The translations under genes and the position numbers were made by a program. 64,000 nucleotides of DNA from Pseudomonadota bacterium (GTDB lineage: Bacteria > Pseudomonadota > Gammaproteobacteria > SURF-13), in assembly GCA_040756035.1 (NCBI GenBank), contig JBFLZV010000002.1, forward strand, positions 16,124 through 80,123, written 5' to 3'. Shown here in pieces: positions 2,561 to 60,738 of this stretch. The number at the start of each line of letters is the position of its first letter. Position 1 is the first letter of the stretch. Under the pieces are notes generated by a model. It made no database searches. It saw only the letters and a list, made by a program, of their open reading frames with translations, and had not been told where the DNA came from.

Positions 2561-3817
2561 CTAGCGCTTCATCGAATCGAAAAATTCCGCGTTGGTCTTG
2601 GTGGCTTTGAGGCGGTCGAGCAGGAACTCCATGGCGGCGAGTTCGTCCATGGGGTGCAGTAGTTTGCGCAGGATCCACATCTTCTGCAATTCGTCGGGCT
2701 TGGTGAGGAGTTCTTCGCGGCGCGTGCCGGAGCGGTTGATGTGGATGGCTGGGTAGATGCGTTTTTCGGCGATCTTGCGGTCCAAATGGATTTCCATGTT
2801 GCCGGTACCCTTGAATTCCTCGTAGATCACGTCGTCCATGCGCGAGCCGGTGTCGATGAGAGCGGTGGCGATGATGGTGAGGCTGCCGCCTTCTTCAATG
2901 TTGCGCGCGGCGCCGAAGAAGCGCTTGGGGCGTTGCAGCGCGTTGGCGTCCACGCCGCCGGTGAGCACCTTGCCGGAGGACGGGATGACCGTGTTGTAAG
3001 CGCGCGCCAGGCGCGTGATGGAGTCGAGCAGAATCACCACGTCGCGCTTGTGTTCGACCAGGCGTTTGGCCTTTTCGATGACCATTTCGGCCACTTGTAC
3101 GTGGCGGCTGGCGGGTTCGTCAAAGGTGCTGGACACTACTTCACCCTTCACCGAGCGCGCCATTTCCGTCACTTCTTCCGGGCGCTCGTCGATCAGCAGC
3201 ACAATCAAATAGCATTCGGGATGGTTGGCGGCGATGGACTGCGCGATGTTTTGCAGCATCATGGTCTTGCCCGACTTAGGCGAGGAGACGATCAGGCCGC
3301 GTTGGCCCTTGCCGATGGGTGCGATCAGGTCGATGACGCGTGCGGTGATGTCCTCGGTGCTGCCGTTGCCTTGCTCCAGCGTGAGCCGCTCGTTGGCGAA
3401 CAGCGGTGTGAGGTTTTCAAACAGCACTTTGTTCTTGGCGTTTTCCGGAGCCTCGAAATTGATCTCGCTGACCTTGAGCAGCGCGAAGTAGCGCTCGCCC
3501 TCCTTGGGCGGGCGGATCTTGCCGGACACCGTGTCGCCGGTGCGCAGGTTGAAGCGCCGCACCTGGCTGGGCGAGACGTAGATGTCGTCCGGGCCGGCAA
3601 GGAACGAGCTATCGGCGGAGCGCAGGAAGCCAAAACCGTCTTGAAGGATTTCCAGCACGCCGTCGCCGAAGATATCTTCGCCCTTTTGCGCGTGCGCCTT
3701 GAGGATGGCGAAGATCACGTCTTGCTTACGCGAGCGCGCCATGCCCTCGATTTCCATCGATTGGGCAAGGTCGATGAGTTCAGCGGCGGGTTTCTTTTTG
3801 AGTTCGGTGAGATTCAT
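2561..3817 (-). CDS. rho: Transcription termination factor Rho
   Basis: 418 aa. Has the N-terminal RNA-binding/cold-shock-like domain and the RecA-type ATPase core ([10 protein letters not shown] Walker A). Lies in the conserved rho-trxA neighbourhood. Confidence 0.95.
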
Positions 3818-17813: not shown

Positions 17814-17890
17814 GGTGATAAGCAACGGGTGATGAGTAATGAGTGATGGGTGATGTTTTACTCATTACCGTTTACTCATTACCCATCACC
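17814..17890. repeat. Purine-unit/pyrimidine-unit palindromic element (family 2, copy A; GGTGAT/GAGTAA units)
   Basis: GGGTGATGAGTAATGAGTGATGGGTGATG ... TTACTCATTACCGTTTACTCATTACCCATCACC, between the dat start and the dacA stop. Confidence 0.75.
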
Positions 17891-17891
17891 G

Positions 17892-19082
17892 TTAACTAAA
17901 CCACAACTTGATCGTATCGATTAAGCGCCGCCACCAACTGCCTTGCGCCACGTCTTGCAGCGCGATCAGCGGGCGCGTGAGCAGCACCTTGTCGTTCAGG
18001 CTGATCTTCACGACGCCGTGCGTGGCGCCCTTGCGCGCCGGCGCGATCACCGATTTTTCGATTTCCATGGCGGCCTTGAGATTTTGGTACTGGCCGCGCG
18101 GCACGGTAATGTACAAGTCTTCGCCGATGCCGAGCGCCAGGCTCGGGCTCGCGCCCTTCCACACGCGCACTGTGGACAGCGGTGTCGCGGCGGCGTACAG
18201 GCGCTGCGTTTCGTAGGTGCGGAAGCCGTAGTTGAGCAGCGCCTGGCTTTCGTCGGCGCGCACATTTTCACTCTTGGTGCCGAGCACCACGGAGATGAGG
18301 CGCATACCGTCGCGCTGCGCCGAGGCGACCAAACAGTAGCCCGCCGATTCGGTGTGGCCGGTTTTTATGCCGTCCACGTTGCCGTCGCGCCACAATAATT
18401 TATTACGGTTGTATTGCTTGATGCCGTTGTAGGCGAATTCCTTCAGCGAGTACCACTTATAGTATTCCGGAAATTCGCGGATCATGGCGCGCGCCAGTTT
18501 GCCCATGTCGCGCGCGGTGATATACAGCTCCGGGTCGGGCAGGCCGGTGCTGTTGGTGAAGTGGCTGTGTTCCATGCCGAGTTCCTTGGCGTATTGATTC
18601 ATCAACGCGGCAAAGCCTTCCTCGCTGCCCGCCACGTGCTCGGCCAGTGCGACGGTCGCGTCGTTGCCGGATTGCACGATCATGCCCTTGAGCAAGTCCT
18701 CCACGCTGACTTGCGTGCCGACTTGCACAAAACTGCGCGAGCCGCCGGTGCGCCACGCCTTTTCGCTGACCGTGATCTTGTCGGCGAGCTGCATCTTGCC
18801 GGCGCCTAGCGCCTTGAACACCGCGTAGGCGGTCATGAGCTTGGTCAGGCTCGCCGGTTCCATGCGCACGTCGGCGTTGGATTCGGCCAGCACCTCGCCG
18901 CTGTAAAAATCTTGCAATAAATAAGCGCGCGCCGTGCTGGTGGGCGGCGGTGGCGTCGGCTGCTGCGGCGCCGCGGCAACCGGCGCGGTGGCCTTGGGAG
19001 GGGCGGACTGCGGCGCGTCCGCGGCGGCGTGCGCGTTGGCTACACAGAACGCGAGAAGTACAGCAAAGAAATGATGTTTCAT
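17892..19082 (-). CDS. dacA: D-alanyl-D-alanine carboxypeptidase (PBP5/6 family)
   Basis: Has SxxK (ASLTKLM), SGN and KTG motifs. A signal peptide begins at MKHHFFAVLL (ATG at 19082). Confidence 0.9.
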   Translation of the reverse strand: MKHHFFAVLLAFCVANAHAAADAPQSAPPKATAPVAAAPQQPTPPPPTSTARAYLLQDFYSGEVLAESNADVRMEPASLTKLMTAYAVFKALGAGKMQLADKITVSEKAWRTGGSRSFVQVGTQVSVEDLLKGMIVQSGNDATVALAEHVAGSEEGFAALMNQYAKELGMEHSHFTNSTGLPDPELYITARDMGKLARAMIREFPEYYKWYSLKEFAYNGIKQYNRNKLLWRDGNVDGIKTGHTESAGYCLVASAQRDGMRLISVVLGTKSENVRADESQALLNYGFRTYETQRLYAAATPLSTVRVWKGASPSLALGIGEDLYITVPRGQYQNLKAAMEIEKSVIAPARKGATHGVVKISLNDKVLLTRPLIALQDVAQGSWWRRLIDTIKLWFS

Positions 19083-19125
19083 GGCGATGAACAACCTTAG
19101 TGCTGAATAGCCGTTGCTAAAAAAT

Positions 19126-19247
19126 CCAACGCAAAGACGCAAATAAAGTAACGAGTTGCAAGTGACAAGATAAAAATCAATCTCTATGCCTTTTCTTGTA
19201 ACTTGTCACTTGTTACTTGAAACTGTTTTTCGGCGTTTTTGCGTTGG
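19126..19247. mobile_element. Composite small element: TIRs CCAACGCAAAGACGC / GCGTTTTTGCGTTGG enclose a family-3 ACAAGT-unit hairpin. Lies in the dacA upstream region.
   Basis: The TIRs match at 14 of 15 positions and are related to the sucC-sucD MITE TIR. The inner arms are GTTGCAAGTGACAAG (19155-19169) and CTTGTAACTTGTCACTTGTTACTTG (19195-19219). Confidence 0.6.
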
Positions 19248-19309
19248 ATTTTTTGGAAATTAAGGACTTGTAACATCGTAGCGACGCTATCATAGTGGCC
19301 GCGCGCGTA

Positions 19310-20163
19310 TTAATCAATGACTACGTGCGGCGCTTCCAGGCCGAGGCGCATGATGCTTGCGGCGATGCGGTCGGCTTCGTCGACGTCCTTCAGCGGGCCG
19401 AGACGCACGCGATACACGGCCGCTTGGTTAAGCGTGGCCTGGACGATTTTTGTCACGGAAGCAAAGTTCACCGCTAGGCGTTGGCGCAGACGCTCGGCGT
19501 TTTCGCGACTGGCGAAAGCGCCGACCTGGAGGTATAAACTCGGTTCATGCGCGTTCTGCACTGCTTGGACTTGCACGGAGACGTTGGACGGGGCGGCGGG
19601 CGGCGGTTGCGCAGCACCGGTGTCGGCCAACAGCGTGGCGGGTGGATTGTCGCGCGGGTCGATGGAGCGCACTTCGACCAGGCCGGTGCCGGTAGGCAGG
19701 ATGCCGAGCCGGCTGGCGGCGGCGTAGGATAAATCGATCAAGCGATTCTCGTGAAACGGGCCGCGGTCGTTCACGCGCACGACGATGGTGCGCCCGTTGC
19801 GCAGATTGGTGACTTGCACGTACGTGGGCAGCGGCAACGTCTTGTGCGCGGCGGTGAAGGCGTAGAGGTCGTAGGGTTCGCCGCTGGAGGTGCGGCGGCC
19901 ATGGAATTTGGTGCCGTACCACGAGGCGATGCCGCGCTCCACATAGCCCGCGCTGCTTTTAACCGTGACGTAGCGCTTGCCGTAGACCGTATAAGAAGGT
20001 GGGTTACCGTACTTGGCGAGCGGCTCGACGCGCGGCACGGGTTCGGGGATGGTGGATACGTCGATGGGCTGGGCGGGCGCGCCGTCCCGGTCGCCGCCGA
20101 TAATACCTCCGCCCGGAATGTCGGCCGTGCGCGGCAAGCCGCCGCAGCCTTGTAAAAACATAG
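19310..20163 (-). CDS. rlpA: Septal ring lytic transglycosylase RlpA (DPBB + C-terminal SPOR domain). The start is uncertain.
   Basis: DPBB core (ASWYG...TAAHKTLPLPTYVQVTNLRNGRTIVVRVNDRGP) and a C-terminal SPOR domain. The upstream hydrophobic segment LLLVTMFLQGC is encoded by a palindromic element. The true start lies somewhere between 20163 and 20305. Confidence 0.8.
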
Positions 20164-20338
20164 TTACAAGTAACAAGTAATAAGTGACAAGGTGAGGCGG
20201 CGTGCCCCGCCACCGAACGCCCCGCCTGGAGCGGGGCCGTGTTTCGCGCGAAGCATGGATAGCGTAGCGTGAAACCCGCTCCTTAGTTAAAATTTTTTTT
20301 ATCACATTATCATCACTTGATACTTGATTACTTGTAAC
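20164..20338. repeat. Family 3 (ACAAGT-unit) palindromic element, copy I. A ~120-bp GC-rich structured insert sits between its arms. Lies between rlpA and mltB.
   Basis: Left arm GTTACAAGTAACAAGTAATAAGTGACAAGG (20164-20193); right arm TCACTTGATACTTGATTACTTGTAAC (20313-20338). The interior contains the GCCCCGCCTGGAGCGGGGC and TTCGCGCGAA palindromes. Confidence 0.65.
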
Positions 20339-21302
20339 TTTCTTTTATCGCCTGCGATAATTGATACACCGCCATGGCGTATAAGGGGCTGCGATTATAA
20401 CGGGTAATCACGTAAAAGTTTTCCAGTCCCACCCAGTATTCCGTTCCTACCTCGGTTTCAAATTCCAGCAGCGCGCCGAGTTGATCGTCGCGCAAGGCAT
20501 CCCCGCTGACGCTGATGCCGGATTCCTTCAGATGTTGTAGGCTGAATTCCGGCTTCAAGCCGTTGGCGAGCAGTTCGCCGTAGCGGTCGCCGTTGACTTG
20601 CGCGGGCACGGCGACCGGTTTGCCCGGTTGCCAGCCGTGCTCGTGGAAATAATTCGCCACGCTGCCGATGATGTCGTCGATGTCGTTCCACAAGTCGCGC
20701 CGTCCATCGTCATTGAAGTCCACTGCGTAGCGCCGGTAGCTGCTGGGGATGAATTGCCCCCAGCCCATGGCGCCGGCGTAGGAGCCCTTGAGCGCCAACG
20801 GATCGAGCTGTTCTTCGCGCGTGAGCAGCAGATAATTTTCCAATTCGCCGCGGAAGAAATCGGCGCGCGGCGGGTAATCGAAGGCCAGCGTGGCGAGCGC
20901 GTCCAGCACGCGATAGGAACCGGTGATTTTTCCGTAGCGCGTTTCCACGCCGATGATGGCGGTGATGATCTCCGGTGGTACGCCGTAGGTATTTTGCGCG
21001 CGCGCCAGCACTTCGGCGTGTTGATTCCAGAATTGCACGCCGCCCTCGACGCGCGCTTCGTTCACGAAAATCGGGCGGTATTCGTACCAGGGCTTGGCTT
21101 CCGCGGGCCGGCTGATCGCCTCGATGATGTCCGGACGCGCGTTGGCTTGCGCAAACAGCGCGGTCAGATCCGTGTCGCTGAAGCCGTGCCGGGCCGTCAT
21201 CTCGTTAATAAAGTCGCGCAGCTCCGGGCGGTCGATGGCGGCGAAGGTGGAGGATGTCAAACAGACCGCGAGCAGTAGCGCGGCATGAAAATGCTTGTTC
21301 AC
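20328..21302 (-). CDS. mltB: Membrane-bound lytic murein transglycosylase B
   Basis: Has the MltB/Slt35 catalytic domain (IIGVETRYG, GAMGWGQF). The GTG start at 21302 overlaps the rodA TGA stop (GTGA). The N-terminal signal peptide has an AxA cleavage site. Confidence 0.85.
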   Translation of the reverse strand: MNKHFHAALLLAVCLTSSTFAAIDRPELRDFINEMTARHGFSDTDLTALFAQANARPDIIEAISRPAEAKPWYEYRPIFVNEARVEGGVQFWNQHAEVLARAQNTYGVPPEIITAIIGVETRYGKITGSYRVLDALATLAFDYPPRADFFRGELENYLLLTREEQLDPLALKGSYAGAMGWGQFIPSSYRRYAVDFNDDGRRDLWNDIDDIIGSVANYFHEHGWQPGKPVAVPAQVNGDRYGELLANGLKPEFSLQHLKESGISVSGDALRDDQLGALLEFETEVGTEYWVGLENFYVITRYNRSPLYAMAVYQLSQAIKESYK

Positions 21303-27063: not shown

Positions 27064-27351
27064 ATGTCCCTGCAAGCCTCCGAGGTGGAAAAAATCGCCC
27101 ATTTGGCGCGCCTCGCCATTGATCCCGCGGATATTCCCGTCTATACGCGCAACCTGTCCAACATCATCGACCTGGTGGCGCAGCTTCAGGCCGTTGATAC
27201 CGGCGGCGTCAAACCCATGGCCCATCCCCTGGAGATGGCCGCGCGCCTGCGCCCTGACGTCGTCACTGAAACTAACCAGCGCGATAAATTCCTGAGCCTG
27301 GCGCCGCAAGCGGCGGCGGGGCTGTATCTGGTGCCTAAGGTGATTGAATAA
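27064..27351 (+). CDS. gatC: Asp/Glu-tRNA amidotransferase subunit C
   Basis: 95 aa with the GatC signature. Lies upstream of gatA and gatB. Confidence 0.9.
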
Positions 27352-27356
27352 ACCAG

Positions 27357-27424
27357 TTAGGAGTGAGGCGTAAGGAGTGAGGGGTATGCTATTTACTCCT
27401 TACCCCTCACTTCTTACTCATTAC
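27357..27424. repeat. Family 2 palindromic element, copy B, inside the gatC-gatA intercistronic gap
   Basis: TTAGGAGTGAGGCGTAAGGAGTGAGGGGTA ... TACTCCTTACCCCTCACTTCTTACTCATTAC. Confidence 0.75.
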
Positions 27425-27431
27425 TAAACAT

Positions 27432-28886
<1,455 letters not shown>

Positions 28887-28893
28887 ATCAGTT

Positions 28894-28932
28894 GCGTAGA
28901 TTGGGGTGAATGAAATGAACCCCAACGAATAA
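28894..28932 (+). repeat. REP element copy 1 (GCGTAGATTGGGGTGA...GAACCCCAAC)
   Basis: Hairpin with a GTAG 5' motif, between gatA and gatB. Confidence 0.8.
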
Positions 28933-30415: not shown

Positions 30416-30421
30416 AATATA

Positions 30422-30516
30422 TGTAGGTTGGGGTGACTCCGCACCTTGCTTGCCACGGTTGCGTGATGTACGGGCTTAGCAATTTGCAAGGTGCGGGGGA
30501 ACCCCAACAAAAATAA
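30422..30516 (+). repeat. REP element copy 2, expanded: a second palindrome (CCGCACCTTGC...GCAAGGTGCGG) is nested in the REP loop
   Basis: TGTAGGTTGGGGTGA...GGAACCCCAACAAAAATAA, between gatB and corA. Confidence 0.8.
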
Positions 30517-30549: not shown

Positions 30550-31617
30550 ATGGCCGAACTGCTGAAAGACTATCACCCGCCCGGCACCGCGCCCGGCACG
30601 TTGCATCCGGCGCGTGGAGAGGGCGAGCGGGTGCGCGTGCTGCTCACTCGCTACCGCGACGCCAAACCCGAGACGCAGGAATTTGCCGATGTCCGCGAAC
30701 TCGCCGCGGCTATGCGGGGCGCGGAATTAAGTTGGGTACACGTGATCGGCTTGGGCGACATCAAGGCGCTGGAGCGGCTCGGTGAACTTTTTGAATTGCA
30801 TCCGCTTGCGTTGGAAGACGTCACGCGTCTCGGCCAACGTCCTAAAGTGGAAACCTACGCGGATCAGTTGTTCGTTATTTTGCAACACATGGAATACGCG
30901 CAAGAGCAAACCAGATTCACCCAATTTGCGCTGTTTCTCAGAAAAAACTGCGTCATCACTTTCCAGCCGAGCAGGTCCGATCTGCTGGAACCGCTGCGCC
31001 GCCGTATGCCGAACGGCACGGGCGGCGCACCGCTGTTCAGCGCCGATTATCTCGCCTATTCCATCATCGATTTGATCATCGATTCCGCGTTTCCGGCGCT
31101 GGAAGCGTTCGGCAATCGCATGGAAGCATTGGAAGACGAAATTCTGCGCAATCCCAATCGCCAAGTCATGGCGCGCATACACGGCGTGCGTCGCCAACTG
31201 GTGCATCTGCGCCGCATACTGTGGCCGCAGCGCGACGTGATCGTGCGCCTGATGCGCAACGAGCAAGATCTGATCAGCCACGATGTGATCGTATACCTGC
31301 GCGACTCCTCCGATCACGCGGTGCAAGCCATGGACGTGGTGGAAAGCTACCGCGAAATGGCCGCAAGCCTGCTCGACGTGCACCTCTCCAACACCAACGT
31401 GCGCCTCACCGAAGTGATGCGCGTGCTCACCGTCATCGCCACACTGTTCACCCCGCCGATATTCGTCACCAGCATCTACGGCATGAACTTCGACCGCTCC
31501 CATCCATTAAACATGCCCGAACTGGGCTGGGAATACGGCTATCTCATGGTGTGGGGCATCATCATCTCCATCATCATCGGCATGCTCCTTTATTTCCGCC
31601 GCAAGCGGTGGATGTGA
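30550..31617 (+). CDS. corA: Magnesium/cobalt transporter CorA
   Basis: 355 aa. YGMNF (GMN) motif followed by two C-terminal transmembrane helices. Confidence 0.9.
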   Translation: MAELLKDYHPPGTAPGTLHPARGEGERVRVLLTRYRDAKPETQEFADVRELAAAMRGAELSWVHVIGLGDIKALERLGELFELHPLALEDVTRLGQRPKVETYADQLFVILQHMEYAQEQTRFTQFALFLRKNCVITFQPSRSDLLEPLRRRMPNGTGGAPLFSADYLAYSIIDLIIDSAFPALEAFGNRMEALEDEILRNPNRQVMARIHGVRRQLVHLRRILWPQRDVIVRLMRNEQDLISHDVIVYLRDSSDHAVQAMDVVESYREMAASLLDVHLSNTNVRLTEVMRVLTVIATLFTPPIFVTSIYGMNFDRSHPLNMPELGWEYGYLMVWGIIISIIIGMLLYFRRKRWM

Positions 31618-31825
31618 ATCCTTATCATATGAATGAATGCTAATATCCATGCTAACTCAGTGAGAATATAAAGCTACCGATCACGATTTGCTTTACCACT
31701 ATTGCTCTGCGGAGACATTTCTTGCTATTTGCGGAAGTAAGAGACTCCGCTTTAATGATCTTTTTTCGATGAATGATTTCTCGGAGTTGCATTGGGGCTA
31801 CCATGTTTGGGAAGAAGCCGCTAGC

Positions 31826-31863
31826 GCGTAGGTTGGGGTAAGCGAAGCGAACCCCAACAAAAA
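31826..31863 (+). repeat. REP element copy 3, 5' flank of the RAYT gene
   Basis: GCGTAGGTTGGGGTAAGCGAAGCGAACCCCAACAAAAA. Confidence 0.85.
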
Positions 31864-31909
31864 CGATTCAACGAGGCGAACAAATAAACAATCATCTGGA
31901 ATATCAGCG

Positions 31910-32440
31910 ATGCGATATCGACGCGCCGATATAGCCGGAGGAACGTATTTCTTTACGGTCAATCTCGCGGAGCGTAGCCGCACGCTATTGTTCGATTACG
32001 TTGACGTGTTGCGTGCGGTGATCCAAGAGGTCAAACGGCGGCATCCCTTTCACATTGACGCAATAGTGATATTGTCCGACCATTTACACGCTTTGTGGAC
32101 ATTGCCGGCGGATGATCGCGATTACCCTACCCGTTGGACGCTCATCAAAGCCGGTTTTTCCCGGCATATCGCACCCAATGAACAGCGCAATGCGAGCCGG
32201 TTATCCAAAGGCGATCGGGGCGTTTGGCAACGGCGTTATTGGGAGCATCTTATTCGGGATGAGCAAGACTACGCTCGGCACGTGGATTATATCCATTACA
32301 ATCCGGTGAAACACGGCCATGTGCAGCGCGCTTCGGATTGGCCGTATTCCAGCATTCACCAGCATATCGCGGCGGGATTAATCAATAAAGATTGGGGTGT
32401 TGAGGGGCTTGATGAAAGTGGTAAATTTGGCGAGCGGTGA
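31910..32440 (+). CDS. REP-associated tyrosine transposase (RAYT, TnpA_REP; IS200/IS605-like Y1 HuH enzyme)
   Basis: 176 aa. Strong match to E. coli RAYT/YafM (YRRADIAGGTYFFTVNL, HuH motif HLHALWTLP, QRRYWEHLIR, HVDYIHYNPVKHG, SDWPYSS). Flanked by inverted REP copies. Confidence 0.85.
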   Translation: MRYRRADIAGGTYFFTVNLAERSRTLLFDYVDVLRAVIQEVKRRHPFHIDAIVILSDHLHALWTLPADDRDYPTRWTLIKAGFSRHIAPNEQRNASRLSKGDRGVWQRRYWEHLIRDEQDYARHVDYIHYNPVKHGHVQRASDWPYSSIHQHIAAGLINKDWGVEGLDESGKFGER

Positions 32441-37963: not shown

Positions 37964-39136
37964 ATGAATCTCCACGAATACCAAGCCAAACAACTGTTTG
38001 CCGCATACGCCATTTCGGTGACCGCCGGTAAACCGGCGCGCTCGGCGGAGGAGGCGGCGGACGTTGCCGAGGAACTGGGTGGCGCGAATTGGATTGTGAA
38101 GGCGCAGGTGCACGCGGGCGGACGCGGCAAGGCGGGCGGCGTGCGCCGCGCGACGAGTTTGCACGAGGTGCGCGAGATCGTTGCCGCGCTGCTCGGCGCG
38201 CGGCTGGTCACGGCGCAGACCGGCGCCGAGGGTTTGCCCGTGCACAGCGTGCTGATCGAGCGGCCGTGCGCGATTGCGCGCGAGCTGTATCTCGGCGTGC
38301 TGGTCGACCGCGGCCGCGAACGCGTGGTGTTCATGGCGTCGGCGGCGGGCGGCATGGACATCGAGGAGCTCGCCGCCCGCCAGCCCGAAGCCATACACAC
38401 GGCGGCGGTCGATCCGGTGGCGGGTTTGCAGCCTTATCAATGCCGCCGCATCGGTTTCGCGCTGGGTCTGAATGATACGCAGGTAGCGGCGCTCACGCGC
38501 ATCATGTTGAGCCTCTATCGCTTGTTCACGGAAAAAGACGCGAGCCTGGTCGAGATCAATCCGCTCATCGTCACCGACGCGGGTGAGTTGCTGGCGCTGG
38601 ACGCCAAGGTTACGCTCGACGACAACGCCTTATATCGCCAATCCGAACTCGCCGCGCTGCGCGACGTGACGCAAGAGGACGCGCGTGAACACGCCGCGCG
38701 GCAATTCGGACTCAATTACATCACGCTCGGCGGCAACATCGCTTGCATGGTGAACGGCGCCGGATTGGCTATGGCGACCATGGACTTGATCAAGCTGCAC
38801 GGCGGCGAGCCCGCCAATTTTCTCGACGTGGGCGGCGGCACCAGCAGCGAAAAAGTCGCGCAGGCGTTCAAGCTGATATTGTCCGACACCAAGGTCAAGG
38901 CCATCTTGGTGAATATTTTCGGCGGCATTGTGCGCTGCGATTTGATCGCGGAAGGCATCATCCAGGCCGCGCGCGAGACCGCCGTGCGCATTCCCATTGT
39001 GGCGCGCCTGGAAGGCACCAACGTGGAGCGCGGACGCGAATTATTGAAGAACAGCGGCCTAGCCATCGTCACGGCCACGGATTTGACCGATGCGGCGGTG
39101 AAGGCCGTGGCGGCGGGAAAAGGCTTGAAAATCTAA
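37964..39136 (+). CDS. sucC: Succinyl-CoA ligase (ADP-forming) beta subunit
   Basis: 390 aa with the ATP-grasp domain (MNLHEYQAKQLF...). Confidence 0.95.
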   Translation: MNLHEYQAKQLFAAYAISVTAGKPARSAEEAADVAEELGGANWIVKAQVHAGGRGKAGGVRRATSLHEVREIVAALLGARLVTAQTGAEGLPVHSVLIERPCAIARELYLGVLVDRGRERVVFMASAAGGMDIEELAARQPEAIHTAAVDPVAGLQPYQCRRIGFALGLNDTQVAALTRIMLSLYRLFTEKDASLVEINPLIVTDAGELLALDAKVTLDDNALYRQSELAALRDVTQEDAREHAARQFGLNYITLGGNIACMVNGAGLAMATMDLIKLHGGEPANFLDVGGGTSSEKVAQAFKLILSDTKVKAILVNIFGGIVRCDLIAEGIIQAARETAVRIPIVARLEGTNVERGRELLKNSGLAIVTATDLTDAAVKAVAAGKGLKI

Positions 39137-39318
39137 CGCAAAGACGCGAAGACGCAAACAAAAAAATGATTATGGATCAAGATGAAAGTTTATCGTCTCT
39201 GCACTTCTTCGCGGAAAATTATCTTGTTTATATTTACCCCTGCATTTGGGAAGGACTATGAATTTTCCGAGCAAGTGGTTTTTTAATTATTCTCTTTGCG
39301 TCTTGGCGTCTTTGCGTT
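39135..39318. mobile_element. MITE-like element with 24-bp terminal inverted repeats, inserted between sucC and sucD
   Basis: The left TIR AACGCAAAGACGCGAAGACGCAAA (39135-39158) and the reverse complement of the right TIR AACGCAAAGACGCCAAGACGCAAA (39295-39318) match at 23 of 24 positions. The interior is AT-rich. The left TIR starts inside the sucC TAA stop codon. Confidence 0.7.
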
Positions 39319-39333
39319 GAGGTTTTTTAGTCT

Positions 39334-40209
39334 GTGTCAATTTTGATTGATAAAAACACGCGCGTGATTTGCCAAGGCTTCACCGGCAAGCAAGGCACGT
39401 TTCACTCCGAGCAGGCCATTGCTTATGGCACGCGCATGGTGGGCGGTGTTACGCCGGGCAAGGGTGGGCAAACGCATTTGGGGCTGCCGGTGTTCGACAC
39501 CGTGCATGACGCAGTGCGCGCGACCGGCGCGCAGGCGAGCATGATTTACGTGCCCGCACCGTTTGCCGCGGACGCCATTCTGGAAGCGGCGGACGCGGGC
39601 ATGGAATTGATCGTGTGCATTACCGAGGGCATTCCGGTGCTGGACATGCTGAAAGTCAAGGCGGCGCTGCGCGGTTCAACGGCGCGTTTGATCGGGCCGA
39701 ATTGTCCGGGCGTGATTACGCCCGGCGCGTGCAAGATCGGCATCATGCCCGGCGCCATTCATCAACCCGGTTGCGTCGGCATCGTATCACGCTCCGGCAC
39801 GCTCACCTATGAAGCCGTATTCCAAACCACCGCCAACGGCTTGGGACAAAGCACCTGCGTGGGCATCGGCGGCGATCCTATCCAGGGCATGGGTTTTATC
39901 GATTGCCTGGAATTGTTCGAACGCGACGCGCAAACGCGCGGCATTATTCTGGTGGGTGAGATCGGCGGCGCGGCGGAAGAAGCGGCGGCGGATTACATTA
40001 AGCAGCACGTATCCAAACCGGTTGTGGCTTACATCGCCGGTGCGACCGCGCCGCCCGGCAAGCGCATGGGCCACGCGGGTGCGATTATCAGCGGCGGCCA
40101 AGGCACGGCGCACGCGAAAGTCGCCGCGTTGGAAGCGTCTGGCGTGAGCGTCGCGCGCTCGCCCGCGGATATGGGGCGGCTGATGTTTGAGAAGCTCAGT
40201 AAGAAGTGA
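39334..40209 (+). CDS. sucD: Succinyl-CoA ligase alpha subunit
   Basis: 291 aa with the CoA-binding and His-phosphorylation loop signature. GTG start with a GAGG Shine-Dalgarno that directly abuts the right end of a MITE-like insert. Confidence 0.95.
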
Positions 40210-40292
40210 GGAGTTAGGAGTGAGGAGTAAAAACCCCCATGCATCTTGAGCACAGGTCTTCCTCCCCACGCCTTACTTCTTACACCTCACTG
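40206..40292. repeat. Family 2 palindromic element, copy C. Overlaps the sucD stop and lies upstream of nadE.
   Basis: GTGAGGAGTTAGGAGTGAGGAGTAAAAACCCCC ... CTTCCTCCCCACGCCTTACTTCTTACACCTCAC. Confidence 0.75.
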
Positions 40293-40306
40293 GACGAAGC
40301 CCCGTC

Positions 40307-41923
40307 ATGACTACTCAACTACGCCTAGCCCTGGCCCAGATCAATACGCTGGTCGGCGACGTGTCCGGCAACGTCGCCAAGTTCATCGGCGCGGCGCGGC
40401 GCGCGCGCGACGAATTGCGCGCGCACGCGATTGTGTTTCCCGAGCTGGCGCTCAGCGGTTATCCGCCGGAGGATTTAGTGCTGCGCGAGGATTTTTGCGC
40501 GCGCGTGCAGGCCGGACTCGCCGAGCTGGCGCAGGCCACTGTCGGCATCGACGTGATCGTCGGCTATCCGCATCGCGTGGGCGGCAATGTGCTGCATAAT
40601 TCCGCGGCGCTGCTGCGCGACGGCGCGCAGATCGCGCGTTACGACAAGCAATTCCTGCCCAATTACAGCGTATTCGACGAGAAGCGTTACTTCACGCCCG
40701 GCGCCCGGCCGTGCGTGGTGACGCTGCAAGGCGTGCCGGTGGCGCTGACCATTTGCGAGGATATCTGGATGCCCGGCCCGGCGCGCCAGGCGCGCGACGC
40801 CGGCGCACGTGCGATTCTCACCCTCAATGCCTCGCCGTTTCATATCGGCAAGGGCGCCGAGCGCGAGGCGCTGCTCAAGCAGCGCGTTACCGAGAGCGGT
40901 CTGCCTATTGTCTATCTCAATCTGGTGGGCGGCCAGGACGAACTGGTGTTCGACGGCGAGTCGCTGGCGGTGGACGCGCAAGGAGGCACCGTGCTGCGCG
41001 CGCCGGCCTTCGAGGAAGGGCTATACACCTTAGACCTCGACGAACAAGGTATGCGCGCCGTCGGGCCGTTGAGCACGCCGCTCACAGAGGAAGAAAGTGT
41101 CTATCGCGCACTGGTGCTGGGCGTACGTGATTACGTAAACAAAAACGGTTTTCGCAGCGTGGTGATAGGGCTGTCCGGCGGTGTCGATTCGGCGCTCACT
41201 CTGCTGCTCGCGGTGGATGCCCTGGGCGCGCAGCGTGTGCAGGCGGTGATGATGCCGTCGCGCTATACGTCCGACATGAGTTTGGAAGATGCGCAGGCCC
41301 TGGCGCAGGCGCTCGGTGTGAAATACAGCGTCATCTCCATCGAGCCTGCGTTCAGTGCGTTTTTGGAAAGTTTGAAACAAGAATTCGCCGGGCTGGCGCC
41401 GGATGTGACCGAGGAAAACATCCAGGCGCGCTGCCGCGGGGTGATCCTGATGGCGCTGGCCAATAAGAAGCGCGCCATGGTGCTGACCACCGGTAACAAG
41501 AGTGAATTTGCGGTCGGTTATGCTACGCTATACGGCGACATGGCGGGAGGCTTCGCGCCGATCAAGGACGTGCCCAAAACCTTGGTGTATCGATTGGCCG
41601 CCTACCGCAATGGTTTGGCGCGCGTCATTCCGCAGCGCATTCTCAAGCGCGCGCCGTCCGCGGAGCTGGCGCCCGGTCAAAAAGACACGGACAGCCTGCC
41701 GCCCTATGCGGTGCTGGACCCGATTTTGCATAGGTACGTCGAATTGGACAAACGCTGCGAGGACATCGTAGCAGAGGGATTCGACGAGGCGACCGTGCGC
41801 CGCGTGATCGCCATGGTCGATCGTAACGAATACAAGCGCCGCCAAGCCCCGCCCGGGGTGCGCATCACGCGGCGCGCGTTCGGGCGCGATAGGCGGTATC
41901 CTATTACTTGCGGTTTTAAGTAG
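40307..41923 (+). CDS. nadE: Glutamine-dependent NAD+ synthetase (nitrilase domain + NAD synthetase domain)
   Basis: 538 aa. Has an N-terminal CN-hydrolase domain and a C-terminal PP-loop (SGGVDS). Confidence 0.9.
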   Translation: MTTQLRLALAQINTLVGDVSGNVAKFIGAARRARDELRAHAIVFPELALSGYPPEDLVLREDFCARVQAGLAELAQATVGIDVIVGYPHRVGGNVLHNSAALLRDGAQIARYDKQFLPNYSVFDEKRYFTPGARPCVVTLQGVPVALTICEDIWMPGPARQARDAGARAILTLNASPFHIGKGAEREALLKQRVTESGLPIVYLNLVGGQDELVFDGESLAVDAQGGTVLRAPAFEEGLYTLDLDEQGMRAVGPLSTPLTEEESVYRALVLGVRDYVNKNGFRSVVIGLSGGVDSALTLLLAVDALGAQRVQAVMMPSRYTSDMSLEDAQALAQALGVKYSVISIEPAFSAFLESLKQEFAGLAPDVTEENIQARCRGVILMALANKKRAMVLTTGNKSEFAVGYATLYGDMAGGFAPIKDVPKTLVYRLAAYRNGLARVIPQRILKRAPSAELAPGQKDTDSLPPYAVLDPILHRYVELDKRCEDIVAEGFDEATVRRVIAMVDRNEYKRRQAPPGVRITRRAFGRDRRYPITCGFK

Positions 41924-43087: not shown

Positions 43088-43153
43088 GGGGTGAGGTGTG
43101 AGGAGTAAGGAGTAAAAGGTATCACTCCTCACACCTCACTCCTCACGCCTCAC
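43088..43153. repeat. Family 2 palindromic element, copy D, between the nitroreductase gene and bamD
   Basis: GGGTGAGGTGTGAGGAGTAAGGAGTAAAAGG ... TCACTCCTCACACCTCACTCCTCACGCCTCAC. Confidence 0.75.
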
Positions 43154-43936: not shown

Positions 43937-44043
43937 GGTGTTACCAAGAAGCTCACTGGTTAAGATAACGTCCCCGCTGCGTTCCCGCCCCCCCCTGTGT
44001 AGAGGGCGGGATAGGGTGGGGGCAGGGTGAAATAAGAATTCTA

Positions 44044-44092
44044 CTAAGAAGAAACAAAATAAGCGATGGCCGCTTATTTTGTTTCTTCTTAG
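44044..44092. promoter_or_regulatory. Perfect 22-bp inverted repeat with a 5-nt spacer, in the bamD-rluD divergent promoter region
   Basis: CTAAGAAGAAACAAAATAAGCG-ATGGC-CGCTTATTTTGTTTCTTCTTAG. The exact complementarity was verified by hand. Confidence 0.5.
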
Positions 44093-44113
44093 TTAAGGTG
44101 CTGGGTTAAAGAC

Positions 44114-45978: not shown

Positions 45979-46767
45979 ATGAACCTGCTGGCCTGGATTA
46001 TGCTGTTCAGCCTTATCGGTGGCGTGCTCAGCGTGCTGGCGGCGGGGGCTTTTCTATTATTCCCGGAGCGCTCGCGCATACGCCTGCTGCCGCATCTGGT
46101 CAGCTTCGCCGTCGGCGCGCTGCTCGGCGCGGCGTTTTTGGAACTGTTGCCGGAGGCCATGGAGAGCCCGCACGTCACTACGCAGCAAGTCGGCGCGGCG
46201 GTGTTGATCGGACTGCTGATTTTTTTCGTGCTGGAAAAAATTGTGCTGTGGCGCCACTCGCACGCCGACTCCCCGGAGTGCGCCGCGACGCCGGGTCACG
46301 CGCACCACCATCCGCCGCTGCGCGCGGCCGGCATTCTCATCGTGATCGGCGACGCCATTCACAACTTCGTCGACGGCATACTCATCGCGGCGGCGTTTCT
46401 CACCGACGTGCGCTTAGGAATCATCACCAGCCTGGCCGTCGCCGCACACGAAATTCCGCAGGAGGTGGGCGACTTCGCCATTCTACTGCACAGTGGCTAT
46501 AGCCGCGCCAAGGCGCTGTTCTACAATATTCTGTCGAGCGTCACCACCATCATCGGCGCGCTGCTGGCTTATTACAGCCTTGCCGGCTTGGAGCAAGTGG
46601 TGCCGTTCGTGCTGGCGATCGCGGCGGCCAGTTTTATTTACATCGCCGTCGCGGATTTGTTGCCCGACCTGCACCAGCGCGCGCAGAGGCGCGCGTCGCT
46701 GCAGCAGTTCGCGCTGATCGGTTTGGGCATCGCGTTGATTTACGCGGCGGAAGTGGTTTTGCATTAA
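45979..46767 (+). CDS. zupT: ZIP-family zinc transporter (ZupT-like)
   Basis: 262-aa polytopic protein with the ZIP signature HNFVDGILIAAAF...HEIPQEVGDFAIL. Confidence 0.8.
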   Translation: MNLLAWIMLFSLIGGVLSVLAAGAFLLFPERSRIRLLPHLVSFAVGALLGAAFLELLPEAMESPHVTTQQVGAAVLIGLLIFFVLEKIVLWRHSHADSPECAATPGHAHHHPPLRAAGILIVIGDAIHNFVDGILIAAAFLTDVRLGIITSLAVAAHEIPQEVGDFAILLHSGYSRAKALFYNILSSVTTIIGALLAYYSLAGLEQVVPFVLAIAAASFIYIAVADLLPDLHQRAQRRASLQQFALIGLGIALIYAAEVVLH

Positions 46768-46855
46768 GGGTGATGGGTAATGAGTAAAAACCATCACCCA
46801 TCACCCATCACCCATACCCATCATCCATCACTCATCACTCATTGACTCATTACCC
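46768..46855. repeat. Family 2 palindromic element, copy F, between convergent zupT and cydB. It contains the cydB C-terminus and stop.
   Basis: GGGTGATGGGTAATGAGTAAAAACC ... ATCACCCATCACCCATCACCCATACCCATCATCCATCACTCATCACTCATTGACTCATTACCC. Confidence 0.75.
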
Positions 46856-51988: not shown

Positions 51989-53113
51989 TCATCGCGACTG
52001 TCCGTGCGGCGCAACGCCGGGCCGCGGACCGGCTGCCGGGCGCGCGACGCGCTCCATCCAATCGGGGGGCGTAAGTTGATTAGCGCGATACCAGGCCAAT
52101 GGGTCGGCCTTGAGCGTCGCCACCATATGCGGCAATGTAGCGCGCAGCGTGCGGCGTGGTTCCCAGCCGAGCACCGTGCGCGCGCGCGTGATATCGAGCG
52201 CATAGTGGTCGTCGGCCACGTCGATCATCCACGGCTTGATGAACGGCTCCTCGCCGGGCAGCGCATCTTCCAGCCAGGCGCCGGTCTTGGCCAGCGCCTT
52301 GGGAATTTCATGCGTGGTGAATTCCTCGCCGTGGATGAGCACGCCGAGGCGGCGTTGCAGCTCCTCGTAGCTGACCGTGTCCGGTTCGCCCACCAGCAGC
52401 GGCAGTTCCGGCGGCAGCACGGCGCGGCGTTCGATGAGCAGGAACAAGGCGTCCAGTAGATCGTCGAGATGCAGCGTCGCCTGCCCGTGCGTGGAATCGC
52501 CGGGAAACACCGAGCGCAATATCTGGCGCTCGTAGATGCGCTGTATCTGATGCGCGAGCGTCGGCAAATGGCAGTATTCGTCGTATACGCCGGCGATGCG
52601 CAGCAGCACCGCGGGGATGGCGCCGCGCTGCGCGCGGATCAACTGCTCCGCTTCTAATTTGGACTGCGGGTAGGCCCATTTGGGCTCCAACGGCCAGTCT
52701 TCGTTGATGGTTTGACCGGGCGCGCAGGGCGCATGCACCAGCATGGTGCTGGCGAAGAGGAATTGACCGACGTCTTGGAATTCCTGCAGGGCGTGCAGCA
52801 AATGCCCGGTGCCGTGCACGGTGACGGCGTCGTACAAGGGACTGGGCTCGCCACTGAAGTCGTAATAACCGGCGAGGTGCACCACGCTGGCGATGTGCTC
52901 GCCGTGCAGGCGGCGGATCTCGTGTAGCGTGCGCCGCACCTGCTCGCGCGAGGCGATGTCGACGACGAAGTTGGCGCCACCGGGCGGCAGGTGCGCTGGA
53001 CGGCGGCGGTCGAGCGCGATGACGTTATAGCGTTCCGCCGCGCGCTGGCACAACGCGGCGCCGATCAGGCCGCTGCTGCCGGTGACAATGAGGGTGTCCT
53101 TACCACTTGGCAT
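51989..53113 (-). CDS. NAD-dependent epimerase/dehydratase family protein (extended SDR)
   Basis: TGSSGLIG Rossmann motif and a YxxxK catalytic dyad region. Confidence 0.8.
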   Translation of the reverse strand: MPSGKDTLIVTGSSGLIGAALCQRAAERYNVIALDRRRPAHLPPGGANFVVDIASREQVRRTLHEIRRLHGEHIASVVHLAGYYDFSGEPSPLYDAVTVHGTGHLLHALQEFQDVGQFLFASTMLVHAPCAPGQTINEDWPLEPKWAYPQSKLEAEQLIRAQRGAIPAVLLRIAGVYDEYCHLPTLAHQIQRIYERQILRSVFPGDSTHGQATLHLDDLLDALFLLIERRAVLPPELPLLVGEPDTVSYEELQRRLGVLIHGEEFTTHEIPKALAKTGAWLEDALPGEEPFIKPWMIDVADDHYALDITRARTVLGWEPRRTLRATLPHMVATLKADPLAWYRANQLTPPDWMERVARPAAGPRPGVAPHGQSR

Positions 53114-53128
53114 GGATTCTCCCTATAT

Positions 53129-53212
53129 GTGAGGCGTGAGGGGTGAGGAGAAAAACCCCTGCTCGGAATACATGATTTTTTACTCCTCACACCCCTCTTC
53201 TTACCCCTCACC
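53129..53212. repeat. Family 2 palindromic element, copy G, between the epimerase gene and the CBS gene
   Basis: GTGAGGCGTGAGGGGTGAGGAGAAAAACCCC ... TTTTTTACTCCTCACACCCCTCTTCTTACCCCTCACC. Confidence 0.75.
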
Positions 53213-53672: not shown

Positions 53673-53692
53673 CGTGCACCTCCTTGTTAAAA

Positions 53693-53764
53693 GCAGTTAC
53701 AAGTGACGAGTTGCAAGTTACAAGAAAAACATTAAGCGGTTTTTTATCTTGTCACTTGTAACTG
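53693..53764. repeat. Family 3 palindromic element, copy K, between the CBS gene start and the dienelactone hydrolase stop. It encodes the hydrolase C-terminus.
   Basis: GCAGTTACAAGTGACGAGTTGCAAGTTACAAG ... TCTTGTCACTTGTAACTG. Confidence 0.7.
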
Positions 53765-54443
53765 TTTTTCCAGTCAAGTATTGAACGAACCACTGCCGCG
53801 CCAAATCGGCCACCCGCTCCAGCGTGCCGGGTTCCTCGAACAAATGCGTGGCGCCGCCCACGATCGACAGCTTTTTCACCGCGGGCAGTTGCGCCAATGC
53901 GTCTTCATTGAGGCGCAGCACCGCGACGTCGTCGCCGCCCACGATCAGCAGCGTGGGCGCGCGCACCTTGGCCAGCGCCGGACCCGCCAGGTCGGGCCGT
54001 CCGCCGCGCGACACCACCGCGTGCACGGCGTCCGGATGCCGCGCGGCGGCCAGCAGCGCCGCGCCCGCGCCGGTGCTGGCGCCGAAATAGCCGATCGGCA
54101 ATGCGTGCGTGGCGGCGTGTTCGCGCAGCCAGTCGGTGGCGCGCGTGAGCCGTTCCGCGAGCAGTTCGATGTCGAAGCGCAGGTGCCCGGTGTAGCGCTC
54201 GGCGGCTTCCTCTTCCGCGGTGAGCAGGTCGATGAGCAGTGTGGCTAGGCCGGCCTGTTGCAGCACCTGCGCCACGTAGCGGTTGCGCGGACTATGGCGG
54301 CTGCTGCCGCTGCCGTGCGCGAACAACACCACGCCGCGCGCGTCGGGCGGTATCGTCAAGTCGCCTTCCAAAACCGTATTAGGCCCTATGCTGATGCGCA
54401 CCGGATATTCGTCGAGCGCGGGGCTGGTTGCAGCTGTTCTCAT
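53718..54443 (-). CDS. Dienelactone hydrolase family alpha/beta hydrolase
   Basis: 241 aa with a GxSxG-like nucleophile elbow (GASTGAG) and the DLH fold. The C-terminal 15 codons are encoded by a palindromic element. Confidence 0.7.
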   Translation of the reverse strand: MRTAATSPALDEYPVRISIGPNTVLEGDLTIPPDARGVVLFAHGSGSSRHSPRNRYVAQVLQQAGLATLLIDLLTAEEEAAERYTGHLRFDIELLAERLTRATDWLREHAATHALPIGYFGASTGAGAALLAAARHPDAVHAVVSRGGRPDLAGPALAKVRAPTLLIVGGDDVAVLRLNEDALAQLPAVKKLSIVGGATHLFEEPGTLERVADLARQWFVQYLTGKTVTSDKIKNRLMFFL

Positions 54444-60637: not shown

Positions 60638-60738
60638 GGTGAGGAGTGAGGAGAAAGGTGTGAGGGGTAAAAAAAACCATGCTCCCTAATCAAGGGATTT
60701 CCTGCTCACTCCTCACTCCTTACTCCTCACGCCTCACC
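60638..60738. repeat. Family 2 palindromic element, copy H, between clpB and the HDOD gene
   Basis: The outer 16 bp, GGTGAGGAGTGAGGAG (60638-60653), pair with CTCCTCACGCCTCACC (60723-60738) with one mismatch. The inner arms show the same unit structure. Confidence 0.75.

Follow-up and report, generated by a model that had tools for sequence, protein, structure and literature searches.

Small palindromic repeats of bacterial genomes are usually classed either as MITEs (miniature inverted-repeat transposable elements) or as repetitive extragenic palindromic (REP) sequences. Here we analyzed a stretch of 64,000 nt from contig JBFLZV010000002.1 of a gammaproteobacterium (the window; 61% GC), in which a short insert at 39135-39318 separates sucC from sucD, the genes for the two subunits of succinyl-CoA synthetase. 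The insert had been described in the initial annotation as a MITE-like member of a small non-autonomous family, but it fits neither class cleanly.

Several described systems resemble it in part. The mRNA hairpins formed by REP sequences and by bacterial interspersed mosaic elements (BIMEs) alter the stability or expression of neighbouring cistrons, for example at the malE-malF REP and in attenuation by BIMEs. The Correia elements or Neisseria miniature insertion sequences (NEMIS) of Neisseria and the enterobacterial repetitive intergenic consensus (ERIC) sequences of Yersinia are MITEs of 100-200 bp whose ends form long hairpins in polycistronic mRNA; Correia hairpins are substrates of RNase III, and those of ERIC affect how stable the flanking cistrons are. 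In Xanthomonas, tandem heptanucleotide repeats of the sequence GGGAATC form 70-75 inverted pairs per genome, which are intergenic, enriched between co-oriented open reading frames (ORFs), located at most 50 bp from a stop codon or overlapping it, and transcribed, without association with insertion sequence (IS) elements (Rehm et al., 2015; PMC4692102). Doublets of REP sequences, known as REPINs, have been described as well (PMC3116915). Finally, TAACTGA heptamers in Beggiatoaceae, Cyanobacteria and Bacteroidetes form almost exclusively direct arrays just upstream of start codons, with one inverted set among 170, and their distribution suggests horizontal transfer by no known mechanism (MacGregor, 2015; PMC4679880). 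The general kind of element is thus known already, both as extragenic palindromic repeats and as inverted pairs of tandem 7-9-nt units near stop codons. For the octamer family considered below, its spread across phyla and the "onion" nesting of its members, no description was found by topic or by sequence string in a literature whose coverage is incomplete.

Our analyses make it probable that the insert is one copy of a very widespread group of extragenic palindromic repeats whose arms are built from a variable number of short tandem units, and that, rather than being a classical MITE derived from a transposase, it behaves as a REP/BIME-type element or as an inverted pair of simple repeats. 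The features behind this likeness are the lack of target-site duplications and of a conserved core, the position at gene 3' ends, and the nesting of hairpin within hairpin.

Anatomy of the insert between sucC and sucD

By tblastn and Pfam, sucC (37964-39136, plus strand, 390 aa) encodes the beta subunit with ATP-grasp_2 and Ligase_CoA domains, and sucD (39334-40209, plus strand) the alpha subunit with CoA_binding and Ligase_CoA domains; the GTG start of sucD aligned with the ATG start of its homologues. The gap of 197 nt between them is unusual, as had been proposed. Across 80 other gammaproteobacterial species the median gap was 4.5 nt, the genes overlapped in 33 species, and only two had a gap larger than 197 nt.

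The initial annotation placed inverted ends of 24 bp at the borders of a 184-bp insert, and both the coordinates and the 23/24 match were right. The left arm reads AACGCAAAGACGCGAAGACGCAAA (39135-39158, plus strand), and the reverse complement of the right arm (39295-39318, plus strand) reads AACGCAAAGACGCCAAGACGCAAA; in a repeat search the inverted repeat reached a length of 33 nt at 88%. Among the short-range inverted repeats of the window only one is longer, the pair of 35 nt at 74% in the copy at 19126-19247 that is described below, and of the long ones the repeat at sucC-sucD is the best matched. Both arms are tandem arrays of 7-9-nt units with at least two units each. The left arm consists of the octamers AACGCAAA GACGCGAA GACGCAAA (Tandem Repeats Finder, period 8, 2.9 copies) and the right arm, which is the left arm inverted, of TTTGCGTC TTGGCGTC TTTGCGTT (period 8, 3.1 copies). 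The units match at 86-88% and follow the form (R)ACGCRAA, that is (G/A)ACGC(A/G)AA, and the arms have the conserved terminus AACGCAAAG. The two arrays are opposed on opposite strands in an intergenic position between co-oriented ORFs, where the left one overlaps a stop codon.

The stop codon (TAA) of sucC occupies 39134-39136 and its last two bases are the first two of the left arm, so that the arm opens at the second base of the stop codon. At the other end, the GAGG that serves as the Shine-Dalgarno sequence of sucD (39319-39322) adjoins the last base of the right arm. In both respects the sequence agreed with the earlier description. The outer flanks belong to the same structure. The A-rich left flank AGGCUUGAAAAUCU (39121-39134, plus strand) encodes the tail of SucC and pairs with 39320-39333 in the minimum free energy (MFE) structure, and the right flank (39319-39333, plus strand), made of GAGG, T6 (39323-39328) and AGTCT, pairs with the end of sucC. 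In the alignment SucC ended in DAAVKAVAAGK-GLKI, whereas the nearest homologues, with 386 aa rather than 390, ended in DAAVKAVASDK. The four additional codons and the stop (GGC TTG AAA ATC TAA, 39122-39136, plus strand) lie past the end of these homologues and coincide exactly with the stem's left outer flank. SucC thus reads four codons into the flank of the palindrome; the position at the stop had been described correctly, but rather than as an insertion exactly at the stop codon it is better understood as an element that brings the stop codon with it. Since the full palindrome is the exact interval from SucC residue 386 to the sucD start codon, we infer that a palindrome of about 213 nt (39121-39333) took the place of a formerly tight sucC-sucD junction and now supplies the sucC stop (its T in the flank, its AA in the arm), a four-residue tail, and the GAGG and T-tract before sucD. 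For genome annotation this means that repeat elements can contribute C-terminal tails (GLKI here, ASDK and SSKLQVAR in relatives), stops and ribosome-binding sites.

Between the arms lies an AT-rich core of 136 nt (39159-39294, plus strand), for which blastn-short gave no second copy, either elsewhere in the window or across about 2 Mb of loci. Its left 70 nt weakly resemble the core of the copy at 19126-19247 (Smith-Waterman score 34 versus 22+/-4; 6/500 shuffles). We considered whether the core itself is functional, encoding a small RNA or small protein or serving as an internal sucD promoter, with the arms as insulation. Its length and AT-richness in a 61% GC genome and its unaltered state in six of seven same-species contigs, all seven of which carry the element, would fit such a role. 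However, the core folded no better than shuffled sequences (z = -0.3), the promoter scan found no promoter-like site, ORFs in the element reached at most 34 aa and none had a ribosome-binding site, and no homologous core was seen elsewhere. At gathering thresholds Rfam reported only tRNA across the whole window, and at E<=1 the insert region yielded only noise (E about 0.5-1). The sole single-nucleotide polymorphism seen in the core was non-synonymous in the longest small ORF. A functional core is therefore extremely unlikely. A degenerate nested hairpin was likewise rejected on the fold of the core.

SucC identity in the protein search fell from 99-100% within the species to 75-76% in the next relatives, and the order pilR-pilS-orf-sucC-sucD-nadE-glnB was retained in the nearest relatives. 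In these (loci L087, L090 and L007), the sucC-sucD junction holds a hairpin of the GTNGCAA/GTNACAA heptamer type, which starts within the sucC coding sequence (GCA GTA GCA AGT) and has the sucC stop in its first units. A hairpin of the CGCAAAG type, which has the arms of the insert, occupies the junction in a Ca. Muproteobacteria metagenome-assembled genome (MAG) with 66% SucC identity (L012), a CGTAGGC-heptamer hairpin lies in the enlarged sucC-sucD gap of a Steroidobacter MAG (L043, 4022-4174), and in L023 and L068 a CGCAAAG-type hairpin, again with these arms, stands between sucD and nadE. Tandem-arm palindromes of different families thus occupy the site repeatedly. Other enlarged spacers were also seen at this junction: Legionella longbeachae (L070, 11161-11318) has a sucC-sucD insert of 156 nt with an inverted repeat of about 16 nt (TATAACTATTCATCAC / GGTGAATAGTTATA), and Acidithiobacillus sulfurivorans (L029, 11164-11507) has a spacer of 342 nt, apparently with a small ORF.

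A dispersed family with octamer arms

The related ends that had been noted at 19126-19247 mark a real second copy of the motif. This copy B (19114-19259; the insert is copy A) lies between rlpA and dacA, as identified by Pfam. It begins with A6-TCC and an outer arm of two octamers, AACGCAAA GACGCAAA, encloses a nested hairpin with arms of GTNACAA heptamers (19148-19223), and ends with the mirrored outer arm, also of two octamers, and GGA-T6. The flank ahead of it, AAAAATCC, is of the same type as the left outer flank of the insert, and the two copies have AAAATCY before the arms and GRRTTTTTT after them in common. Copy B was predicted to fold at -50.8 kcal/mol (z = -6.7).

Outside the window, we searched metagenomes with the pattern AACGCAAAGACGCNAAGACGC, whose 20 specified bases lead us to expect about one match by chance. 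The pattern was present in at least 120 contigs of 45-71% GC from soils, sediments, peat and waters, and in 65 of their matches the inverted terminus GCGTCTTTGCGTT lay within 450 nt. The 65 paired elements measured 58-285 nt (median near 95) and had unrelated cores, and the family consensus with its flanks reads AAAAGATTTC, AACGC...GCGTT, GAAATCTTTT. Contig L165 (41% GC) is chlamydial by PheT, its best named matches being Parachlamydiaceae with 58-64% identity; it holds two copies, one of them enclosing a (CACAGAGAN)n hairpin. With a chlamydial host beside gamma- and betaproteobacteria and Muproteobacteria, the family spans phyla, and the same 21-mer arm is found in soils, in sediments and in a chlamydial genome. 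Viral contigs gave only four matches, each of a single arm, and the consensus element had no BLAST match in annotated plasmids or phages, possibly because of the low-complexity filter.

Gene context was scored from a crude ORF call for 46 elements. Co-directional genes border more than half of them (25), convergent genes 14 and divergent genes seven; a gene tail adjoins 39 of the 46, typically 4-31 nt past the stop. Nested hairpins were found in copy B, L102, L023 and L165. The number of arm units differs between the two arms and between orthologous copies (L122 versus L196).

Compared with the Xanthomonas pairs, the family has in common the tandem arms of 7-9-nt units, the opposed arrays close together and the proximity to stop codons, but it differs in its octamer unit, conserved terminus AACGCAAAG, conserved flank, cross-phylum spread and often long or nested cores. 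The unit GACGCAAA has no G-run, so that the G-quadruplex formation studied in Xanthomonas is inapplicable here. Like the REP, BIME and REPIN elements of Enterobacteria and Pseudomonas, family members are extragenic, sit at gene 3' ends including those inside operons, lack target-site duplications and are mosaic or nested. Unlike REP sequences, the arms of the insert start with AACGCAAAG and have no GTAG head, and they are tandem octamers rather than short imperfect palindromes. True REP doublets of the GTAG type are separate entities nested in such hairpins. In two other gammaproteobacterial loci (L023, 12068-12205; L008, 6380-6590), REPIN-like doublets of this type lie inside or abut CGCAAAG-armed hairpins, and hairpin loops seem to be favoured landing sites for other palindromic elements. 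The TAACTGA repeats and the short tandemly repeated repetitive (STRR) heptamers of cyanobacteria are similar in having tandem units at gene boundaries, a patchy distribution across phyla and possible overlap with stops; the octamer arrays differ from the TAACTGA arrays in forming inverted, hairpin-forming pairs. A fixed terminal inverted repeat and a conserved core characterise Correia and ERIC elements, and in Correia a TA target is duplicated as well; the octamer family showed none of these features.

These differences bear on the classification as a MITE, by which the insert would be a non-autonomous deletion derivative of an IS with a DDE transposase, mobilised in trans through its 24-bp ends, and its position at the sucC stop would be accidental. 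The near-perfect inverted ends, small size and non-coding nature would suit such an origin, as would the second copy with related ends (19126-19247), the very many copies in other genomes, the weak similarity between the cores of copies A and B and the paralogous copies around panB in L179. Nevertheless, no target-site duplication was present at either boundary of copy A (39135/39318 or 39121/39333) or at copy B. Of the 65 family members none was flanked by a direct repeat of at least 4 bp, two had one of 3 bp and six one of 2 bp, which is the level of chance; at the flank positions up to 10 nt outward, inverted complementarity was instead 35-60%, indicating that the palindrome runs on outward. 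A look for a cognate transposase had been suggested as well, and none was encoded among the approximately 50 proteins of the window, which also has no REP-associated tyrosine transposase (RAYT, IS200/IS605-like Y1 transposase). Arms more than 450 nt apart, considered as a possible autonomous element, enclosed no transposase; what lay between them was fhs, arfB, panB or a GxxExxY gene, all ordinary genes. In addition, the tandem arms vary in their number of units, unlike a fixed end to which a transposase would bind, and the cores are unrelated. As target-site duplication and conserved core, two defining features of MITEs, were both looked for and found absent, the insert is better regarded as a palindromic repeat, and a classical MITE appears quite unlikely. 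What stands of the earlier proposal is a small, non-coding, multi-copy family bounded by inverted repeats and tolerated between normally adjacent genes; its derivation from a transposase-bearing element is not supported.

Another explanation dispenses with mobility altogether. Replication slippage could have expanded a short native motif in place, and template switching within the strand (quasipalindrome correction) could have made the mirrored arm, the similarity among loci being convergence. Local growth of this kind would account for unit numbers that differ between arms and between the orthologous copies of L122 and L196, for a variable position mirrored more than expected, and for junction hairpins of relatives that begin in sucC coding sequence. 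But an identical 21-mer with conserved terminus and flank in at least 120 contigs of 41-71% GC and several phyla makes convergence implausible, and a single genome has these families at many loci that are unrelated to one another. We consider this explanation very improbable.

Several family loci showed further arrangements. In L179, panB is bracketed by two mutually inverted octamer-armed copies (477-572 and 1438-1536) that have at least 15 nt of flank in common and both carry the rare arm variants GACGCTAA and GACGCCAAGG; these are evidently paralogues within one genome. L174 (8520-9136) contains three tandem copies of a 210-bp unit in which an octamer-armed hairpin is joined to a small GxxExxY-like gene's 5' end, and GxxExxY-like genes lie 3' of arms in L184 and L193 too. 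On the minus strand of L186, an ORF whose N-terminal sequence by eye resembles an IS3-family orfA begins about 100 nt past a solitary left arm (8515 on that strand), where an IS may have inserted into a hairpin. In L165 (723-982), L102 (310-484), L103 and L199, other tandem-arm families, (CACAGAGAN)n, (CACGGAAG)n and (CACGGATGAA / CACAGATGAA)n, form inner layers or lie alongside, and the same layering is seen again in Chlamydiota and in soil contigs of high GC.

Predicted fold, translation and termination

The RNA from 39120 to 39345 had a predicted MFE of -76.6 kcal/mol (z = -6.8), and none of 200 shuffles was as stable. The predicted pairing spans 39121-39333, beyond the palindrome originally described, with arms and flanks forming a nearly perfect stem, about 36 bp long, from which the AT-rich core is looped out. 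In the free RNA, both G's of the Shine-Dalgarno sequence are unpaired with a probability of 0.002. When a ribosome on the sucC stop was modelled by blocking positions -15 to +9..+15 around it, the first of these G's was predicted to be unpaired at 0.5-0.8 and the second at about 0.13.

The model suggests that initiation at sucD depends on ribosomes completing sucC, which would preserve translational coupling. The stem would bring the sucC stop codon beside the ribosome-binding site of sucD and bury its Shine-Dalgarno sequence; a ribosome terminating at the stop would open the base of the stem and free that sequence, and translation of sucD would stay coupled to that of sucC across the 197-nt spacer. 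Long perfect stems are an expected substrate of RNase III, whose cleavage is known in Correia-containing transcripts. By the same model, RNase III would cleave the long stem here, parting the two cistrons and freeing the ribosome-binding site. The locus is a natural test case for the ability of a long-range stem to hold coupling and a 1:1 output of subunits over a spacer of 200 nt.

Several observations speak against our interpretation, either of the insert as a dispersed palindrome or of its role. First, no empty site was found: the same-species contigs are filled in seven of seven cases, the next relatives have only 75-76% SucC identity and carry different hairpins, and in the genome contig search the best match among those listed had 70% SucC identity, with no empty-site allele, so that insertion is deduced rather than observed. 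The earlier proposal would have fallen had there been no other copies and had relatives the same spacer; other copies exist, and the spacer differs in relatives. Second, there was no clear compensatory covariation between arms. Departures were one-sided in 213 cells versus 11 mirrored, where 13 mirrored were expected, and the permutation value was not exceeded. The sample had been chosen by the exact arm pattern, which fixes one arm and leaves one position unbiased, and at that position the arms agreed in 0.66 of elements versus 0.47 expected. This agreement indicates conservation of the sequence and not of pairing alone; seen alongside the conserved terminus and flank, it speaks for the copying of a sequence, by mobility or homogenisation, rather than for selection favouring any hairpin. 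Third, exposure of the sucD site by a ribosome on the stop was also predicted for the junction hairpins of L007 and L087, but in L012 and L090 it left the ribosome-binding site no more exposed. Coupling thus fails as a general role of junction hairpins and would be a property of the locus rather than of the family. Fourth, a run of four to six A's upstream and a T6 tract downstream accompany the stem in both copies of the window.

The last observation belongs to the main rival of our interpretation, in which the insert would be a bidirectional intrinsic terminator or attenuator after sucC, or a block to antisense transcription, and the family a population of terminators. The family flank consensus (AAAAGATTTC before and GAAATCTTTT after the arms) and the frequency of convergent gene pairs (14/46) agree with it, and a simple scan marked a local hairpin with a T-run at 39300-39333. 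In contrast, the stem encloses 118-136 nt where efficient terminators have a loop of 3-8 nt, and in most family members AU pairs separate the U-run from the GC-rich part. Of the usual form of an intrinsic terminator, the U6 tract is present here, whereas the compact GC stem, the 3-8-nt loop and the location at a unit end are not. The element also stands between subunits that are needed 1:1, similar hairpins stand between gatC and gatA, and there is no promoter-like site from which sucD could be restarted. Taken together, we judge termination to be a rather unlikely function of the insert, and continue to favor an extragenic palindromic repeat.

Heptamer hairpins of the window

The window contains about 11 AT-rich hairpins with tandem 7-8-mer arms, most of them heptamers, and all adjoin gene ends. 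Several split operons of multi-subunit enzymes, for example between gatC and gatA of the GatCAB amidotransferase. The stretches at 27351-27432 (gatC and gatA) and 40207-40307 (sucD and nadE) are two cases in which such a hairpin parts genes that as a rule are closely linked. In order, they are a GTGATGA hairpin between dacA and a D-aminotransferase gene (17826-17893), copy B with octamer outer and heptamer inner arms between rlpA and dacA (19126-19247), GTTACAA between mltB and rlpA (20155-20346), GTGAGG between gatC and gatA (27362-27425), GACGCAAA between sucC and sucD (39135-39318), GTGAGGA between sucD and nadE (40205-40290, the sucD TGA at 40207-40209 lying in the first unit), GTGAGG between bamD and a nitroreductase gene (43088-43150), CCATCAC between a ZIP transporter gene and the convergent cydB (46765-46842), GTGAGGC 3' of an epimerase-family gene (51989-53113) at 53129-53148, GTTACAA between a hydrolase gene and a CBS-domain gene (53689-53769), and GTGAGGA between clpB and an HDOD gene (60639-60737).

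The heptamer arm families GTGATGA/GTAATGA, GTTACAA/GTGACAA, GTGAGGA/GTAAGGA and CCATCAC often start at or inside a stop codon. Heptamers of the form GT(G/A)ANNN contain TGA or TAA, and because seven is not a multiple of three, an array of them presents a stop in each frame within 21 nt; the octamer array (GACGCAAA)n carries no stop in any of the six frames. ORFs that end inside the first heptamer units with short repeat-encoded tails include the mltB-like gene, sucD and the sucC genes of relatives. The units that house these upstream stops lie at 20328-20346 and 40205-40228 in the window, at 4267-4285 in L087, at 3857-3874 in L090 and at 6503-6538 in L007.

A more far-reaching reading, which we put forward as tentative and on balance doubtful, would join octamer and heptamer hairpins into one class of cross-phylum mobile palindromes that create no target-site duplication, do not rely on a DDE enzyme and are compatible with operons. 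Such elements would insert at stop codons and into the loops of one another by a mechanism whose specificity is for hairpins or single-stranded DNA. Each copy would end the upstream ORF, here by the stop at its edge and in GTRANNN heptamers by stops in all frames, and at the sucC-sucD junction the Shine-Dalgarno sequence of sucD carried in the stem would keep translation of the two genes coupled. Operon-compatible ends and coupling would then explain how elements can lie between sucC and sucD and between gatC and gatA without polarity. If the family is indeed mobile, a vector or enzyme that acts across phyla would be involved.

Palindromes without tandem arms were observed in the window as well. 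Those at 30420-30515 (3' of gatB) and 28897-28925 (gatA/gatB) have GTAG heads (GTAGGTTGGGGTGA...ACCCCAAC), resemble classical REP sequences and form a repeat family apart from the tandem-arm hairpins. At 44043-44093, in the intergenic region of the divergent genes bamD and rluD, there is a hairpin of 23 perfectly paired bp and a loop of 5 nt (ACTAAGAAGAAACAAAATAAGCG / CGCTTATTTTGTTTCTTCTTAGT), which has no tandem periodicity. The segment at 31580-32440 comprises about 230 nt of AT-rich sequence 3' of corA, followed by an ORF of 176 aa (31910-32440) with no Pfam match, and is possibly a foreign insertion. The window also carries the gene of the Rho termination factor (2561-3817), the 3' end of which faces a degenerate hairpin of the GTAATTG/GTAGTGG type (2492-2560) in common with the convergent glycogen phosphorylase gene.

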